Source of the DNA: a virus
Taxonomy: Duplodnaviria; Heunggongvirae; Uroviricota; Caudoviricetes
IMG/VR virus record: IMGVR_UViG_3300049219_000004
DNA: 64,000 nucleotides
Strand: one strand, 5' to 3'
Positions 29,619 to 37,741 of the stretch are shown one piece after another. The notes under the pieces are model-generated. The model searched no databases and was not told the DNA's origin. It saw only the letters and a program-made list of their open reading frames with translations. The translations under genes and the position numbers were made by a program. Each line of letters opens with the position of its first letter. The first letter of the stretch is position 1.

Positions 29619-29792
29619 TTAGAAATAGCCCAGCAGTGCACCAAGAGGTGGCACGAAGATACCTACGATACGAATCAGAGCCATCAAGGTAATGCCGCCA
29701 TCAGCAAGGCAGATGAGTTTAACGATATTTGCTAGCCAGCCACTGATTCCGGCGATCCAGATAGCTACAATGATAAGTGAGTAAATCTTCAT
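29619..29792 (-). CDS. small hydrophobic membrane protein (57 aa), not in supplied ORF track
   Basis: ATG at 29792 preceded by AAAGGAGAAACAAAA; product MKIYSLIIVAIWIAGISGWLANIVKLICLADGGITLMALIRIVGIFVPPLGALLGYF. Confidence 0.4.
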   Translation of the reverse strand: MKIYSLIIVAIWIAGISGWLANIVKLICLADGGITLMALIRIVGIFVPPLGALLGYF

Positions 29793-29815: not shown

Positions 29816-30271
29816 TTAAGTAGCCAGTGGAACATCTACCAGTACCATAAATTGCTGACGAATATCTGCATGCTTCCGAGCAAGCTCTTCAGTTTTTAGT
29901 GCAATTGCCAAGTCTTCTCGTTTTGCAAGTGTGCTAGAAATGAAGCTGCGTTCAGAAGGTGTCATCCAAGTGTCATTAATTGTGAAGTCATTTTTATCTT
30001 TTAAAAGACTCCTGAGCATCAAACTTGTGTGGGTACGGTGGTAATATACCCGTACTTCGGTTCCGCTATATCTAGGCCCTTCGACAACTTTCCAGTCCTC
30101 CAACTTCAAAAGTGATGCGGCCAAAGACTTAACAGGCTCAGAAATGTCTTGAGTTTCCTCGTCTAGAATTTCTTCCAAGTCTGCTGCATATTCCAGAGTT
30201 AACTTTAGCTCCAACTCTGGAAATTTTGATTGTTTTGAAAGCCAATTAAACATCAATCCTCCTTCAGCCAC
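29816..30271 (-). CDS. hypothetical protein, translationally coupled partner of macro-domain gene
   Basis: 151 aa, start overlaps macro-domain gene 3' end by 19 nt. Confidence 0.5.
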   Translation of the reverse strand: MAEGGLMFNWLSKQSKFPELELKLTLEYAADLEEILDEETQDISEPVKSLAASLLKLEDWKVVEGPRYSGTEVRVYYHRTHTSLMLRSLLKDKNDFTINDTWMTPSERSFISSTLAKREDLAIALKTEELARKHADIRQQFMVLVDVPLAT

Positions 30272-30732
30272 AACGTAGCGTCTACATCATGGAACACAGC
30301 TTGAAAGATAGCAGTGAGACGCTTCACGTCACCACCGCCCAGCCCACCGCCAATCATCGGTAGGTAGACAGGAAGGTTGTCAGCTAGTGCTACATCTCGC
30401 ACAGATTCTAGAGCCTTAATTACAGCGACATAGCTAACATATTGCCTACCGTCACGTCCATAGTTCTCTTGGGTAATAGCATTGCAAACAATCACTGAGG
30501 TAATGTTTGTCTTCTTCACAAACTGAGTAGAACCTAAGTCAAAACCGAAGTCGTTGTACTCTTGCTTGTAAGCTTCAAACGCATGCGGGTAGAGCTTCTT
30601 GACGAGAGCTGCTACGCCACTGCCCATCACACCTTTTGCGTTACAACCGTGAACGAAGATAACTCCTTCTCCAGCTTCATGTCTCTTCAGAAGTTCGTTG
30701 AATACATCACCAGATTCAATTTTAAGTGGCAT
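30253..30732 (-). CDS. macro domain protein (ADP-ribose binding/processing)
   Basis: 159 aa; GVIFVHGCNAKGVMGSGVAALVKK matches the macro-domain nucleotide-binding core (vvNaANxxlxxGgGVxxAI), C-terminal GGGLGGG glycine loop. Confidence 0.7.
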   Translation of the reverse strand: MPLKIESGDVFNELLKRHEAGEGVIFVHGCNAKGVMGSGVAALVKKLYPHAFEAYKQEYNDFGFDLGSTQFVKKTNITSVIVCNAITQENYGRDGRQYVSYVAVIKALESVRDVALADNLPVYLPMIGGGLGGGDVKRLTAIFQAVFHDVDATLWLKED

Positions 30733-31140
30733 TATTTTATTCCTTTATCGTACTAGATCAATATACTGGCCGAATTCTCGATCAAACACACTGATAAGAT
30801 TTTCATAATCGGAGGATTGCATTTCAGTGACTATAGCTTCAGCGTTCAATCCAAGTTTCTTCGCCATATCTTTCCTTTCTTCGGTACATTCCCCATCGCC
30901 TTACAATGGGAGCATTTACAGGTACACTTCTTTGCCATCACTCCTCCTACGAACAAAAACTGACACGCTCACCTTGAAAGCCTGACTTTCGAATCATCTC
31001 GCCGTAAGCCTCAAGGGAGATGATTGCCTTGCCATTAATGTATCAAGCGTACGTGAAGAAACTCTTTCTTATAGTACCTTGTTGGATACTTACTAGTGTC
31101 AATTTAATCATTTCTTTCCTTTGTTGAACAGATAGGTAAC

Positions 31141-31170
31141 ATTGTATTGCTACCTACCTATTCGTGTCAA
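31141..31170 (-). promoter_or_regulatory. sigma70-like promoter on minus strand (TTGACA-18-TACAAT) reading into 30.7-31.1 kb leader and macro-domain operon
   Basis: Minus-sense TTGACA (plus 31165-31170), spacer CGAATAGGTAGGTAGCAA, TACAAT (plus 31141-31146). Confidence 0.45.
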
Positions 31171-31177
31171 GAATTAA

Positions 31178-32548
31178 TTAAGCAACGTAGTGACGCTGCC
31201 CCTTTTGAGAATGTGGGCCTGCATCATAAGCTTTCTTGCCTGCTTGCTTGGCATAGGCACGGGCTTGGTCACGAGTAGCAAAGAACGTGCTCTGCACACC
31301 ATGAGGCATATGATAGCGAACACGTGCACCGTTACCAGCCGTACCCAGTGGCAGGATTGCCAGAGGCTTCACAGGGGCTACCGAAACAGCAGGTACAGGC
31401 TTCTTCGATGCTACAGGTGAAGAAGTAGGCTTGCCAGTTGCAGGAGCCTGAGCCAATACAGGCACAACAGGAGCGTTGTTCTGACCAGCGTAGCGGGTCA
31501 AATCAGCCTGCGTTACAGGACGCCCTTTCTCTGCCCAGTACAGAATACCAGTACCAGCTACCAGCTTACGATTCACCGACTCCGATTGAATGAAGATGTC
31601 ATATTCCCCGTTGCCGTGGTTAGGGTGGATACGAGCATTGTTCACGGTATCCAGACCCAGCATCTTACGAGCATCAGGGCCAGCATACACTTTGCCAGTG
31701 GACTTCTCGCGGATCAGAATCAGCTTCGAAGGAGAAACCTTCGGCTCAGTTTTAGTGAGCTGGTAGAACGCACCACCAATCAGGTATTCAGTACGCTTCG
31801 ACAGAATGAAGTCACGAATCTGGGCACCATCGTGGAATTGATCCACTACGTACAGCGAAGTTTTAGCACTGATGTCCACCAGAGCCGAAGTGTTCACAGC
31901 CGACGTGTTGGTGTAGAACACGTTAGACGATTGAGCACCAGCCGAACGAGCGGAGAAGTAGGTGTTCATTGCTTGTGCAGTAGCCGCAGTGGACTTCTCC
32001 ATACCAGCAGAAGTAGTTTCCCATTCCTGAATGTTATCAGCCGGGATGCCCAGATTCATAACAGTGCTACGATGACCAGAAGGCACGCGGACAACGAAAG
32101 TCCAACGACCTGTACGTTGAACTGCTTCAATCTTCTGACGCAGGGACTGTGCAGTGTGAATCCGCGAACTGCACTCTTCACCGTCAGTAGTAGTCATGAC
32201 GAGGAACGATACGTGAGAGTCGTTTGCATCTGGCAGCGATTGGAACAGATCGATCATGTTTGCGATACCGTCGTACAGAGGAGTACCGCCCGGAGTAGGC
32301 CAGTCAACGACAGGCTTCAGCACGTGAGGATTCGACACAACGACTTGACGCGTTACTTCAGAGTCACGCGGATAACCGAAAGCCACCACCGATACGACAG
32401 TATCCAGCATTTCACGGGTGGCTGCTTCCTTCACAGTAGTGATGGTAGAGTTGTAGTCTTTAGTTGCTGCACGAGCACGAACGCCGCGCATGCTGCCAGA
32501 GTGGTCATTAACGAAGCCAATGTAGTTCTTAGGTTGTTTTTGATTCAT
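31178..32548 (-). CDS. von Willebrand factor A (vWA) domain protein
   Basis: 456 aa; N-terminal FVNDHSGSM = MIDAS DxSxS motif, later T and D residues consistent with vWA fold; C-terminal Pro/Ala/Lys-rich linker plus unknown domain. Confidence 0.65.
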   Translation of the reverse strand: MNQKQPKNYIGFVNDHSGSMRGVRARAATKDYNSTITTVKEAATREMLDTVVSVVAFGYPRDSEVTRQVVVSNPHVLKPVVDWPTPGGTPLYDGIANMIDLFQSLPDANDSHVSFLVMTTTDGEECSSRIHTAQSLRQKIEAVQRTGRWTFVVRVPSGHRSTVMNLGIPADNIQEWETTSAGMEKSTAATAQAMNTYFSARSAGAQSSNVFYTNTSAVNTSALVDISAKTSLYVVDQFHDGAQIRDFILSKRTEYLIGGAFYQLTKTEPKVSPSKLILIREKSTGKVYAGPDARKMLGLDTVNNARIHPNHGNGEYDIFIQSESVNRKLVAGTGILYWAEKGRPVTQADLTRYAGQNNAPVVPVLAQAPATGKPTSSPVASKKPVPAVSVAPVKPLAILPLGTAGNGARVRYHMPHGVQSTFFATRDQARAYAKQAGKKAYDAGPHSQKGQRHYVA

Positions 32549-32827: not shown

Positions 32828-34480
32828 TTATTGCTTCAGGCGTGCTGCAATTTCTGCAAACGTTTGGGTGTTGACAGCTTCACCGTCCATGAACACAGTG
32901 CGGAGTTCACCTCGCCGTTCTTCAATCTCGCCTTGCTTGTCATACAGGACAAACTTACCATCCTCCAGTTCGACACGTAGAAGGCCAGTAGCAGACTTTT
33001 TCATGCCATCCCCAGTAGCAGGGTCTTTCTGAATATCCCGTGCACCGCCGTCTACTTGGCCCCACGTCGCTTTCACGGCCATACCGAAGGTATCACGAGT
33101 GATATACTGGTAGGTGTACGAGCCAACGCCGAACACAATGTTACCAGCACTAAAGCCTTTGTCCATCAAGCGTTGCAGAATTTCTTCAGCACGTCTCAAC
33201 GTGATGCTGTCACCATAGATCAGGCCGACACGTTGGTTCAGAGTCTTGTAACCCTTCTCCGTCATGTCACCACCAAACACGTCCCACAGGCATTCGACTG
33301 CGCCCTTCACTTCGTGCTCTGGTACTTCACGACCGAGGATGAGACCGAAGTGCTGGCTGGGGCCGAATTCAAACACTTTACCGAAGATACGCACCGCATC
33401 ATACTCGTCTTCCAACTTGTACGAATTTTCAACGCTCACAAACACACGTCCGTCTTCCGACTGTTTGAAATTTGCTTCCGAGATGTCTTTGACACGCAGG
33501 CCCGCGACAATCTTCACAGGATCGCCCGAGTCAGGACGGAACACAACTTTCGCCATGCCCAGACCGTTCGGGGTACGGTTCAGGATGTCTTGACGCAGCA
33601 CAGCGGCAAACTCTGTAATCACTTTCCAGAAGTCCCACGTATCCGAGACGATGGACACGATGCCCGAAGGGTAGACATCCTTGATTAGACGGCGGAACGT
33701 GCGAATCTCGCTGTCTTTGCCACCCATGCACATTACGGAGTGTTCCGTGGCAGGTACGGAGCCAGCTACCAGTTCCTTCGTAACGTCAGCACCGTAGTAC
33801 TCTTCCAGATAATCCACAGCCGGAAGGGTATCAGTGCCACGCGAGATGAACAGATGAGCAGCACCAGCCTTAGCGGCACTCTGCCAGCCACACATACCAC
33901 GCATCGAGAAGTCATGAATCTGCCAGTCAGCAAATTCTTTAGACGAACCCGTGAGTTCCACGTATTTGTTCAGAATACGACGGTATTCGTAAGTAATGGT
34001 AGCTACGGTGATTTGTTGCCACAGCTCGTCCGACAGGACAGTTTCCAGATAATTCGTCAGCCAATAAAACTGAGGCAAAGTGTTACGAATCGTCAGGAAC
34101 GGAACTTTAATATCTACACGACTACCTTCAGGCAGGGCTTTGATGATGATAGGCAGATAGCCCAAATCATGCAGAGCTGCAATATGATCGGTGCGTACTG
34201 CGTTCTCACCTAGGAACGTATCACAGCGACGTTTGTACTCAGCAATCACTTCGTCCTTTGGACGCTTGAAGAAGTGTTCGTTCCACGCTTCAATCAGGAA
34301 CTCTTGGACGAAGCCTCGCAAGCCAACGAATACAACTTTGTTGTCGAACATGTCGCCCATATTAGCGTGAGCAGCACTACGAGCTGTCAGATTGGAATAC
34401 ACATAATCGGTGCCTTCCGGGTACTGGTCGATGTGACCTAGCTTGTAGCTATCCAGAATCAGATGTGGTTTGATTTTCAT
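32828..34480 (-). CDS. nicotinamide phosphoribosyltransferase-like protein (NAMPT/NadV family; candidate Namat of a NARP1-type NAD+ reconstitution pathway)
   Basis: 550 aa; N-terminal NAMPT region (MKIKPHLILDSYKLGHIDQYPEGTDYVYSN.., GYLPIIIKALPEG) and overall length typical of NAMPT; adjacent to Prs-like gene. Confidence 0.85.
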   Translation of the reverse strand: MKIKPHLILDSYKLGHIDQYPEGTDYVYSNLTARSAAHANMGDMFDNKVVFVGLRGFVQEFLIEAWNEHFFKRPKDEVIAEYKRRCDTFLGENAVRTDHIAALHDLGYLPIIIKALPEGSRVDIKVPFLTIRNTLPQFYWLTNYLETVLSDELWQQITVATITYEYRRILNKYVELTGSSKEFADWQIHDFSMRGMCGWQSAAKAGAAHLFISRGTDTLPAVDYLEEYYGADVTKELVAGSVPATEHSVMCMGGKDSEIRTFRRLIKDVYPSGIVSIVSDTWDFWKVITEFAAVLRQDILNRTPNGLGMAKVVFRPDSGDPVKIVAGLRVKDISEANFKQSEDGRVFVSVENSYKLEDEYDAVRIFGKVFEFGPSQHFGLILGREVPEHEVKGAVECLWDVFGGDMTEKGYKTLNQRVGLIYGDSITLRRAEEILQRLMDKGFSAGNIVFGVGSYTYQYITRDTFGMAVKATWGQVDGGARDIQKDPATGDGMKKSATGLLRVELEDGKFVLYDKQGEIEERRGELRTVFMDGEAVNTQTFAEIAARLKQ

Positions 34481-34507: not shown

Positions 34508-35086
34508 CTACATAGTAGCAGATAGTTTTACGAATGTACAGCCCCTGTGTGACTTTCTTTTGCCAAGCAAGACTGCGGATATAAGGCGGAAGTCAAAGCC
34601 CTTCCGCTTCATATCTTCGTTACCGTACATGGTTGTCACGAGTTTTCCAGCTTTGTCATATACCTCCACAGCCCCGGTGAATGCGAAAGCTTTAGCAGCG
34701 AACGGGTGATCAACAAATAGGCCGCTATCAATGGCATGATCTTTGTTCTCTTCGTTAGTCGCCCACTCTAAGTTGCTGATAATGTTATTAGTCTTATCCC
34801 CGTCTTTGTGGTTTACTTGAGGTTTGTCGTCGGGGTTAGGAACGAAAGCCTCTGCTACTAGCCGGTGTACCTTTCTAGTGAACTTACTGCCGCCCACGCT
34901 GAGGCGTACGCGAGAGTATCCCCGCTTGTCAGGGTGGGGAGCTAACACTACCCCACCAATAACACGACTTGGCTTGTTATCACTGAAAGTCAGGAGCCTT
35001 ACAACACTTCTGACCTTCCCATGATTACTAACCTCGTAAAACCCTTCGAAGCCATTACAGCTTTTCCAAGATTCCGTAGGTGTCAT
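34508..35086 (-). CDS. HNH homing endonuclease (NUMOD4/HNH_3 type) inserted between NAMPT-like and Prs-like genes
   Basis: 192 aa; N-terminal ..WKSCNGFEGFYEVSNHGKVRS.. and ..HRLVAEAFVPNP..KPQVNHKDGDKTNNIISNLEWAT.. are hallmark free-standing phage HNH endonuclease motifs; overlaps Prs-like gene start. Confidence 0.7.
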   Translation of the reverse strand: MTPTESWKSCNGFEGFYEVSNHGKVRSVVRLLTFSDNKPSRVIGGVVLAPHPDKRGYSRVRLSVGGSKFTRKVHRLVAEAFVPNPDDKPQVNHKDGDKTNNIISNLEWATNEENKDHAIDSGLFVDHPFAAKAFAFTGAVEVYDKAGKLVTTMYGNEDMKRKGFDFRLISAVLLGKRKSHRGCTFVKLSATM

Positions 35087-35870
35087 TCGCCTTGTCCCTT
35101 CTCATATCATTCGCCACGTAAATCTTATCCAGTACACCGTGGAACTTGTCCACGCCAGCGCTGAACAGTCCGTGGGTAACGTACAAGCAAATCTTCCCAG
35201 TTGTGAGCTTGCGTAGCTCTGTAGCAAGAGCCACAAACGTCCCGCCAGCATCAAGAATGTCGTCCACGATTAGGAAGTCTTGGTTGCCGATGTGTGGGAT
35301 ACCAACGGTGCTGGTAGCTACAATCTTACCGCTAGCAAGGTCGCGTACCTTGCTAGCTTGTACAAAACCAACGAAGCCGCCCTCTTGTGCAAATTTGTGT
35401 GCTTTCTTCGATGCTCCTGAGTCAGGAGCTACGATGATAGTGTTAGCAATGTTTTTACGCAACTGTGGACGGCTCGACATCGCCCATTGTTCATGTACTA
35501 CAGTGTTATTGAACAAAGCAGCAGTAACATCTGAATGCGGGTCGAGGATGCAGACGGCTTCAAAGTTTAAGGCATTGATGAAGTCTGCTACTACTTTAAT
35601 GGACAAGCTTTCACCTTCATTGCAAACACGGTCTTGACGAGCGTAAGGCGCATATCCCATCCACAGTTTCAACTTCTTAGTCGGAAACTTCCTGCGGCAG
35701 GCATCAGCCAATAAGGCTAGATCGAATAGATCACCGTTATTCTCGAACGCCAGTTCCAGAGTTAGGTCAGGTTCCAATGGAGAGTTCATGGTTACACGAA
35801 TGCACGACTCACCTCCGGGGAACGTTGTCTTGGTGAAGCCTTCGGGGTAGCCTACAATATGAACGCTCAT
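35055..35870 (-). CDS. ribose-phosphate pyrophosphokinase (PRPP synthetase)-like protein; candidate ADP-ribose pyrophosphate synthetase (Adps) of NARP1
   Basis: 271 aa; PRPP-binding loop FLIVDDILDAGGTFVALATEL and ILDPHS motif of Prs family; shorter than bacterial Prs. Confidence 0.8.
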   Translation of the reverse strand: MSVHIVGYPEGFTKTTFPGGESCIRVTMNSPLEPDLTLELAFENNGDLFDLALLADACRRKFPTKKLKLWMGYAPYARQDRVCNEGESLSIKVVADFINALNFEAVCILDPHSDVTAALFNNTVVHEQWAMSSRPQLRKNIANTIIVAPDSGASKKAHKFAQEGGFVGFVQASKVRDLASGKIVATSTVGIPHIGNQDFLIVDDILDAGGTFVALATELRKLTTGKICLYVTHGLFSAGVDKFHGVLDKIYVANDMRRDKANDTYGILEKL

Positions 35871-37255: not shown

Positions 37256-37741
37256 TTAGCTATTTTCTGTCAAGTAGTTTGGAAAAATAATTTCGCATTT
37301 GTCCTGCAACAGATCGAGAGCATCAGCACTGATACGGAGCGGATACAGAATAGCCCGCTTCTCTAGAGCAATCATCCGGTGAAGCATGTCCAAACTTCCG
37401 GTACTCTCTCCGTCCCATACAACCAACGCACAATCTGCCACCTGTGCCATTTCCTCGTTACGCCAGTGACCCGCCAACAAATTAAATGGCTTGCCATTCT
37501 TATTGTAACGAACGACAGCGCCGGCAGCTTTGATATCGTCCCAGTTCGCAGGCTTAGCGATTGGCTTCTTCAGTCCAGCTTTCTCTGCGAAGATGAGTCC
37601 ATGCTTATCTGGGCCTTCAGCAAGCCCAGAGACGACGACAATACTCTTCCCGTATTGATGCCACAAACCGCTGTTGATAATAGCTTGACGCGTGATGTTA
37701 TAGTCTTTAATGCTACGAGAGCCTGCGATAATTAGCTTCAT
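37256..37741 (-). CDS. SLOG-superfamily (DprA/LOG-like, DUF2493-type) Rossmann-fold protein
   Basis: 161 aa; MKLIIAGSRSI..VVVSGLAEGPDKHGLIFAEKAG matches the GSR..SGxAxGxD motif of Smf/DprA-LOG nucleotide-binding domains. Confidence 0.5.
   Translation of the reverse strand: MKLIIAGSRSIKDYNITRQAIINSGLWHQYGKSIVVVSGLAEGPDKHGLIFAEKAGLKKPIAKPANWDDIKAAGAVVRYNKNGKPFNLLAGHWRNEEMAQVADCALVVWDGESTGSLDMLHRMIALEKRAILYPLRISADALDLLQDKCEIIFPNYLTENS

Follow-up and report, generated by a model that had tools for sequence, protein, structure and literature searches.

A probable ADP-ribose-1''-phosphate phosphatase of the NARP1-AP type, next to a small and probably independent gene, in an uncultured Pakpunavirus-like phage

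In a 64,000-nucleotide stretch of phage DNA (the window), we identified a macro-domain gene that is probably Adpp, the ADPR-1''-phosphate phosphatase of NARP1-AP. We make this assignment because the protein is homologous to Adpp, it has the residues H28 and Q88, and its gene is linked to genes for Adps and Namat. The macro-domain gene abuts a gene for a 145-aa protein, which we will call the partner. A preliminary description of the window had proposed that the two genes are translationally coupled and might form a two-component module. We consider it fairly probable that the macro protein is the Adpp of NARP1-AP and that the 145-aa gene is independent of it, with its position kept by gene order. 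NARP1 itself was reportedly first described by Osterman et al. in 2024.

The features that we refer to are:

29619..29792, minus strand: two-helix membrane protein, 57 aa (phrog_6006), whose gene adjoins the macro gene in the closest relatives
29816..30253, minus strand: gene of the partner, which has 145 aa when translated from the ATG at 30253 (reading 29819-30253)
30251..30255, minus strand: TGATG, the macro stop and the partner start, with one base in common (30253)
30253..30732, minus strand: macro-domain gene, 159 aa, probable Adpp
30258..30264, minus strand: Shine-Dalgarno sequence of the partner, AAGGAGG, within the last macro codons (K-E-D)
30269..30271, minus strand: upstream in-frame GTG, which yields a 151-aa ORF and a 19-nt overlap and is probably not the start
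31141..31170, minus strand: sigma-70-like promoter TTGACA-18-TACAAT, 11/12 consensus, upstream of the macro/partner group
32828..34480, minus strand: Namat, a NAMPT-like nicotinamide ADP-ribose transferase, 550 aa
35055..35870, minus strand: Adps, a PRPP-synthetase-like ADP-ribose pyrophosphokinase, 271 aa

The window is part of a ~89-kb metagenomic phage contig (JGI 3300049207). The source phage is uncultured and, by its sequence, Pakpunavirus-like; its large terminase is ~40% identical to those of Pseudomonas Pakpunaviruses, and no known phage matched the region at the DNA level. The structural and lysis genes are on the plus strand and extend to ~28.85 kb. A long early/metabolic operon on the minus strand converges on them, and it contains the two adjoining ORFs (29816-30732) that had been described. 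The genes for Adps, Namat, and the macro protein are all on the minus strand and belong to one gene block.

The Adps homolog is 39% identical to Adps from Vibrio phage Gary (8e-39) and 30% identical to Adps from SPbetaL1. It contains Pribosyltran domains (from Pfam) and matches TIGR01251 at 122 bits. The Namat homolog is 44.5% identical to Namat from SPbetaL1 (384 bits) and more distant from the Nampt of KVP40 (32% identity, 136 bits). Namat proteins have a characteristic motif in the selectivity helix, GSX-Phi-X-Phi-X-Phi-TRD, which relates to selectivity for ADPR-PP (PMC12774641). The sequence GSYTYQYITRD in the window's Namat fits this Namat-specific motif. Given homologs of both Adps and Namat, with the Namat motif, we conclude that the phage carries NARP1.

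According to a 2026 preprint by Osterman et al., NARP1 is accompanied in 15% of the phages that carry it by Adpp, a macro protein resembling Poa1p, which converts ADPR-1''-phosphate to ADPR (bioRxiv 10.64898/2026.01.28.702374). The substrate of Adpp is the product of the RES-domain NADases of aRES, and Adps, Namat, and Adpp from Gary were enough to counter aRES in E. coli (same preprint). Like these systems, the window has Adps, a Namat that bears the signature motif, and a macro protein of ~159 aa that stands alone, all on one strand. Adps and Namat are also found within 9 kb of the macro gene in nearly all of the 25 viral-contig loci with macro homologs, and some related phages (L033-L035) have the gene order Adps-macro-Namat, as in Gary.

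The window differs from the described NARP1-AP systems in several ways. The window's macro protein is only distantly similar to the enzyme from Gary. An HNH/NUMOD4 homing endonuclease stands between the Adps and Namat genes. The macro gene is downstream of Namat and separated from it by four ORFs (84-aa, 456-aa vWA-like, 30-codon Cys-rich, and 40-aa) and possibly also by a promoter. The macro gene might be behind its own promoter, for which the candidate is 31141..31170; sigma-70-like sites are no more numerous in this region than in shuffled sequence, so this site is a consensus match only. The preprint considered macro genes to be NARP1-associated if they were within two genes (bioRxiv 10.64898/2026.01.28.702374), and at four ORFs from Namat, the window's macro gene falls outside that limit. 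Since extra conserved genes can set the macro phosphatase apart from Adps and Namat, searches "within two genes" would miss such loci. If the macro protein is Adpp, then NARP1-AP counter-defense gains an environmental Pakpunavirus-like lineage.

The ORF at 30253-30732 is a macro-domain protein with intact ADP-ribose loops, as the preliminary description had recognized. It contains HGCNAKGVMGSGVAALVKK and matches Macro in Pfam (PF01661) with 28.5 bits, above the gathering threshold of 22 bits; residues 27-140 align with positions 1-115 of the 118 in the profile. It also matches the PHROG family phrog_335, "phosphatase," at 1.3e-36. Both of the Gly-rich loops are present: MGSGVA (G37, S38, G39), which includes the GSG, and IGGGLGGG (G128-G133). 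In an alignment of 31 members of the macro family, the residues of these loops are invariant or nearly so, and a C-terminal LKE(D/E) is kept across the family. The macro homologs that we found were all 143-164 aa.

Two other residues are invariant in the family and are shared with Adpp-type proteins. H28 aligns with H24 of Gary Adpp, the histidine that was mutated in the preprint (H24A; bioRxiv 10.64898/2026.01.28.702374), and Q88 is within AITQENY, where T87-Q88 corresponds to the GQ motif of Adpp-type proteins. In contrast, DarG has an asparagine and the catalytic lysine at these two positions.

A pairwise alignment of the window's macro protein with Gary Adpp covers 138 aa and has 28% identity (E = 6e-8); the identity to other NARP1-associated macro proteins from Table S1 of the preprint is 29-33%. 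An HMM of the window's macro family gave 58-82 bits for six of the NARP1-associated proteins in that table and 39.6 bits for the validated Gary Adpp. Among sequences from the PDB, the macro protein matched BT1257 (2FG1, 2.7e-10) and SCO6735 (5E3B, 4e-8) best, and it also matched Poa1p (4e-3). BT1257, SCO6735, and Poa1p (6LFQ/6LFT) resemble the window's protein in their single-domain size and in the pattern HxCN...G(S/K)G...GQ...IG(C/G)GL(A/G)GG. They differ in that they are cellular proteins, with roles in the clearance of a tRNA-splicing by-product and in protein de-ADP-ribosylation, and have no NARP1 context. The DarG of Mycobacterium tuberculosis (Mtb) scored above Poa1p (29.6 versus 20.3 bits), and with DarG outscoring Poa1p, these similarities do not settle the substrate specificity. 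What we observed is the homology, the gene contexts, the motifs, and the gene junction, from which we infer the enzymatic activity of the macro protein and the role of the partner; biochemical assays cover one distant member of the family, the 28%-identical protein from Gary.

JGI labels the protein as an O-acetyl-ADP-ribose deacetylase, a name that was apparently given generically from a COG. We also considered a MacroD/YmdB-type deacetylase and rejected it: the nearest family in NCBIfam, NF001666 ("ADP-ribose-binding protein"), gave 17.3 bits versus a cut-off of 246.

Host defenses of the aRES type are RES-domain NADases that split NAD+ into nicotinamide and ADPR-1''-phosphate. If our assignment is correct, the macro enzyme would strip the 1''-phosphate to leave ADPR. 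Adps (35055-35870) would pyrophosphorylate ADPR to ADPR-PP, and Namat (32828-34480) would couple ADPR-PP with nicotinamide, which would restore NAD+. The 145-aa protein would not be a subunit of the macro enzyme. In this phage lineage, its gene would keep a conserved place toward the close of the early/metabolic operon, with or without the NARP1-AP block upstream, and would be translated from the Shine-Dalgarno sequence in the last macro codons.

The macro and partner genes do overlap, as had been described, but by 1 nt instead of 19 nt, and the partner is 145 aa instead of 151 aa. The 19-nt overlap requires that translation start at the first in-frame GTG (30271). We prefer the ATG at 30253, six codons 3' of the GTG, for three reasons. 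AAGGAGG (30264-30258) is 4 nt before the ATG, and there is no Shine-Dalgarno sequence upstream of the GTG. The N-termini of the family are MFNWL(K/R)QK or MFMSKLF, and the window's protein begins with MFNWLSKQ if translated from the ATG. Finally, the extension that the GTG would add, VAEGGL, is not found in any of the aligned homologs. Starting from the ATG, the junction is TGATG, with a 1-nt overlap.

The overlap had been taken as a sign of stoichiometric co-expression, but a start/stop overlap is not distinctive here. By the gene calls that come with the contig, this operon has 23 same-strand junctions, and genes overlap at 12 of them. Furthermore, the same Shine-Dalgarno sequence serves another gene in relatives. 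Two of these, L002 and L003, lack the partner and have the same AAGGAGGATT at the 3' end of the macro gene, followed directly by the ATG of the gene for the 57-aa membrane protein. The coupling signal belongs to the 3' end of the macro gene (the conserved K-E-D/E codons) and serves whatever gene comes next. In a compact phage operon, overlapping start and stop codons do not show that two proteins form a complex.

In four distinct phages, the gene directly 3' of the macro gene belongs to the partner family: the window, L006 (the same as L007/L012/L013), L010, and L023. The two genes are always tightly abutted, and a functional link within that sub-lineage would fit this arrangement. The macro gene is found without the partner in ~15 distinct related phages, and ~11 of these have NARP1 genes nearby. 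Phages whose macro gene is not followed by the partner are L002, L003/L018, L022, L024, L025, L028, L029, L031, L033, L035, L041, L044, and PA10. They include the closest relatives, at 74-77% macro identity (L002, L003/L018, L044, and P0003, of which the first three were examined), in which the gene that abuts the macro gene encodes a membrane protein of 55-57 aa. In L004/L019 and L026, a 31-codon ORF (...LEDKPHPKGDE...) matches the N-terminus of the partner from L023. These remnants imply that the partner was deleted while the macro gene was kept. In L027, the partner is upstream of Adps.

Conversely, the partner is found without the macro gene in at least five contexts (L008, L009, L014/15, L016, and L011), although these contigs are partial and their genomes may have a macro gene elsewhere. 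In L008, L009, L015, and L016, it directly follows genes for ribonucleotide reductase or glutaredoxin, and there is no macro, Adps, or Namat gene on these partial contigs. L008, L009, and L014 have other genes in common with the window's phage, in the same order, and L011 is an unrelated phage with a member of the partner family. Within the block, the partner also diverges most: its identity is 29-38%, and that of the macro protein is 56-70%. Conserved gene order with frequent loss explains these contexts most simply, and the partner would then be a fast-diverging, often-lost, and dispensable accessory that is found only in phages.

The partner was said to belong to no recognizable family, and our searches bear this out. 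It had no matches in Pfam, PHROGs, NCBIfam, PADLOC, or sequences from the PDB. When we compared a profile of the partner to PDB sequences, the best hit was the Ig domain of VSIG4 (E = 0.024), which we judged to be noise. There were no matches to phage genomes by tblastn, and a word-indexed protein search returned only the protein itself. Scans for the motif pattern in viral contigs, metagenome contigs, and bacterial and archaeal genomes gave no further relatives. The sole match from a metagenome (L046) was a chance GRDEWEL in an unrelated protein. An exhaustive HMMER search of 1.84e9 representatives found four true relatives, and a profile search gave 12 matches. The homologs are 130-165 aa, and every contig that was open to inspection was phage-like and metagenomic. 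L008 and L009 also encode short tandem paralogs, which consist of the core alone.

The partner is nevertheless a real gene: its codon usage is of the coding type in its own frame (the log-odds are positive in that frame only), and its motifs are kept by distant homologs. An alignment of at least 13 proteins, which are 22-33% identical to the window's partner, contains the motifs ISEPVxSL, (D/E)W, WMTxDE(R/K), and RxKFMVLV. The gene has a GC content of 40.9%, versus 46.8% for the window, with a low GC3.

Using the 13-sequence alignment, AlphaFold 2 (AF2) modeled the partner with a pLDDT of 75.9, versus 37.5 from the single sequence. The model has a short helix, a sheet of four to five strands (a beta-meander), and a C-terminal helix of 40 residues. 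The core domain of the family comprises ISEPVxSL, the beta-meander, WMTxDE, and the long helix. The model had no fold match; the best hits in BFVD had a TM score of ~0.5 and were to uncharacterized phage proteins. In the model, S38 and T98 directly precede two helices, like N-caps, and the other invariant residues are E101, R132, and, for the most part, hydrophobic ones (V, L, W). The small size and acidity of the protein, its conserved residues, which are mostly hydrophobic or helix-capping, and the long C-terminal helix point to a binding or structural role more than to an enzyme. The partner is probably a host-takeover or anti-defense accessory that acts on a target of its own, and we have low confidence in any specific target.

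Several other readings of this locus need to be weighed. The macro protein might remove ADP-ribose from macromolecules, either from DNA, in opposition to DarT as DarG does, or from proteins, as SCO6735 does, instead of acting on free ADPR-1''-phosphate. The window's protein and DarG (5M3I, 5M31; NF048014) do share one broad macro clade, and their similarity scores are 29.6-38 bits; the weak matches to DarG include 38 bits in PADLOC, 33.9 bits in NCBIfam, and 5e-6 for Mtb DarG (5m3i), and there is a match to SCO6735 (5e3b, 4e-8). But 33.9 bits is far below the cut-off of 250 for NCBIfam's DarG equivalog. Models of DarG span 329-338 positions, and DarG has a C-terminal domain that binds DarT, with DarT encoded adjacently, while the window's protein is 159 aa and has the macro domain only. 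None of the neighbors of the window's macro gene is an ADP-ribosyltransferase. The catalytic lysine of DarG is reportedly K80, from the 2016 work of Jankevicius et al. The lysine of PTKKHW in Mtb DarG aligns with Q88 of the window's protein, which is invariantly a glutamine, and the position of DarG's asparagine has a histidine, as in Adpp and Poa1p. The linkage to Adps and Namat is also both tight and widespread. Although macrodomain antitoxins from phages that resemble DarG are known (PMC13309987), we consider action on macromolecules to be unlikely, and the earlier suggestion of an inhibitor of DarT is disfavored by the glutamine, the low score, and the missing DarT-binding domain. (We rejected AdfB from ICP1 as a model for a macro-type protein because AdfB is described as acting by direct interaction with DarT.) The other suggestion, an ADP-ribose hydrolase with a specificity or targeting subunit, is partly retained: a hydrolase of ADP-ribose derivatives that acts against a host defense is plausible, and the targeting subunit is not supported. 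A stoichiometric module, in which the partner would be a targeting, specificity, or regulatory subunit of the hydrolase, would explain the overlapping stop and start codons, the Shine-Dalgarno sequence inside the macro gene, and the four distinct phages in which the partner comes straight after the macro protein's gene. However, each gene is found without the other, the remnants show loss of the partner with the macro gene kept, there were no macro-partner fusions among the homologs of either protein, overlaps are usual among the genes of this operon, and the Shine-Dalgarno sequence serves a different gene in relatives. Gary Adpp also functions with only Adps and Namat and without any such partner. 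We regard this module as quite improbable.

The remaining alternatives concern the partner itself. It could be a separate anti-defense factor in the same NAD+/ADP-ribose conflict, such as an inhibitor of a NADase or a binder of an ADPR signal, that acts without the macro protein. Its sporadic presence, fast divergence, lower GC content, and small size fit with this, as do its ADPR-related neighbors (NADAR, DUF4326, and SLOG in L010, and NARP1-AP in the window). There are precedents as well: Adpp and RyDEP are NARP1-adjacent accessories, and aRad1 is a small NADase blocker. Yet the target is putative, the partner is also found at loci where no NARP1 genes are seen, and it resembles neither aRad1, the RyR domain, nor any other library entry, nor does its model match a known fold. 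This makes a separate factor in that conflict a doubtful proposal. (As candidate identities, we rejected both aRad1, which inhibits aRES and has no similarity to the partner, and the RyDEP/RyR domain, PF02026, which had no match in Pfam and is of another fold class.) A broader version, that the partner family is a new class of phage counter-defense in the NAD+/ADP-ribose conflict, which perhaps blocks a NADase or ADP-ribosyltransferase, or modulates Adpp where it abuts the macro gene, strikes us as a speculative idea with little chance of being right. Finally, the partner ORF could be a decaying or non-functional remnant, as it is lost or truncated in several relatives and has a low GC3. This is very hard to reconcile with an intact frame, coding-type codon usage in that frame only, motifs that persist in at least 13 proteins at 22-33% identity to the window's protein, a confident AF2 model given the alignment, and tandem paralogs in some phages, and we give it almost no credence. 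Our preferred reading remains a probable Adpp beside an independent gene.

The partner represents a small uncharacterized family of phage proteins, with a probable homolog in cultured Pseudomonas phages, which makes the family open to experiment. The closest relative from a cultured phage is gp071 of the Pakpunavirus PA10 (YP_009597996), which is probably a distant homolog (hhalign 93%, E = 3.5e-7; HMM E = 4.6e-7). Like the partner, it has IGEPVKAI, EWMTAEERE, and an N-terminus of the MFKKLFAWF type. It differs in its length (228 aa) and has insertions. Its gene is on the same strand as PA10's NARP1-AP macro gene and ~3.5 kb downstream, so the two are not adjacent. PA10 gp071 is annotated as hypothetical and has ~124 homologs. 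A few records give it the name "chaperone for long tail fiber formation," for which they offer no evidence.

The macro gene and its small downstream partner may form a transcription group separate from Adps-Namat, since a near-consensus sigma-70-type promoter is predicted from the sequence within the 310-bp gap that follows the vWA-like gene. The features in and around this group in the window are:

30256-30264 (-), Shine-Dalgarno site for the gene after the macro gene
30745-30867 (-), 40-aa ORF with low GC content (38%)
30846-30938 (-), conserved Cys-rich micro-ORF (MAKKCTCKCSHCKAMGNVPKKGK...)
31141-31170 (-), predicted sigma-70-type promoter, TTGACA-18-TACAAT
31178-32548 (-), 456-aa vWA-like protein, which matches phrog_26613

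The codons for the macro protein's conserved C-terminal K-E-D/E also encode the Shine-Dalgarno site of the downstream gene, and these codons may, throughout the family, be subject to a dual constraint. Upstream of the macro gene, the 40-aa ORF is an insertion that separates the Cys-rich micro-ORF from the macro gene; in L002, a closely related phage locus, the micro-ORF directly abuts the macro start. Thus, there are low-GC ORFs at both junctions that flank the macro gene, and these are missing from the closest relatives.

The partner family includes tandem paralogues, short ORFs, and a probable distant homologue in other phages:

L008, 3327-3881 and 3878-4207, tandem long-form and short-form paralogues
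L009, 6716-6997 and 7001-7441, tandem long-form and short-form paralogues
L004, 6471-6566; L019, 9471-9566; L026, 5502-5597, 31-codon ORFs that overlap the macro stop codon
L043 (Pseudomonas phage PA10), 8972-9658, gp071

The 31-codon ORFs (..WLKKLLLEDKPHPKGDEM..) correspond in sequence to the N-terminal end of the full-length partner from L023, where the partner abuts the macro gene. All three appear to be deletion remnants of the partner. The short-form paralogues are 93-109 amino acids long and retain the conserved core only. PA10 gp071, which is probably distantly homologous to the partner family, is conserved across about 124 genomes of Pakpunavirus and related phages, where most records describe it as hypothetical and a few as "chaperone for long tail fiber formation."

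The 456-aa protein has a vWA-like DxSxS motif at its N-terminus (as VNDHSGSM) and may act as an additional accessory to the NAD+ block. Its gene is conserved between Namat and the macro gene in this phage lineage (L002-L006 and L044); it is missing from the related locus L010 and from Pakpunavirus PA10.

Two other genes lie in or upstream of NARP1 in the window:

34508-35086 (-), HNH/NUMOD4 homing-endonuclease gene, between Adps and Namat
37256-37741 (-), SLOG/YAcAr-like protein, 161 aa

The SLOG/YAcAr-like protein is 60% identical to its counterpart from L010 (region 1027-1934), which adjoins NADAR and DUF4326 genes. So, the lineage has several more ADP-ribose-processing domains upstream of NARP1. 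The homing-endonuclease gene and the 3' end of Adps share 32 nt. Among relatives, the position of HNH genes around the NARP1 genes varies: one is upstream of Adps in L002, and an HNH-AP2 gene is upstream of Namat in L006.
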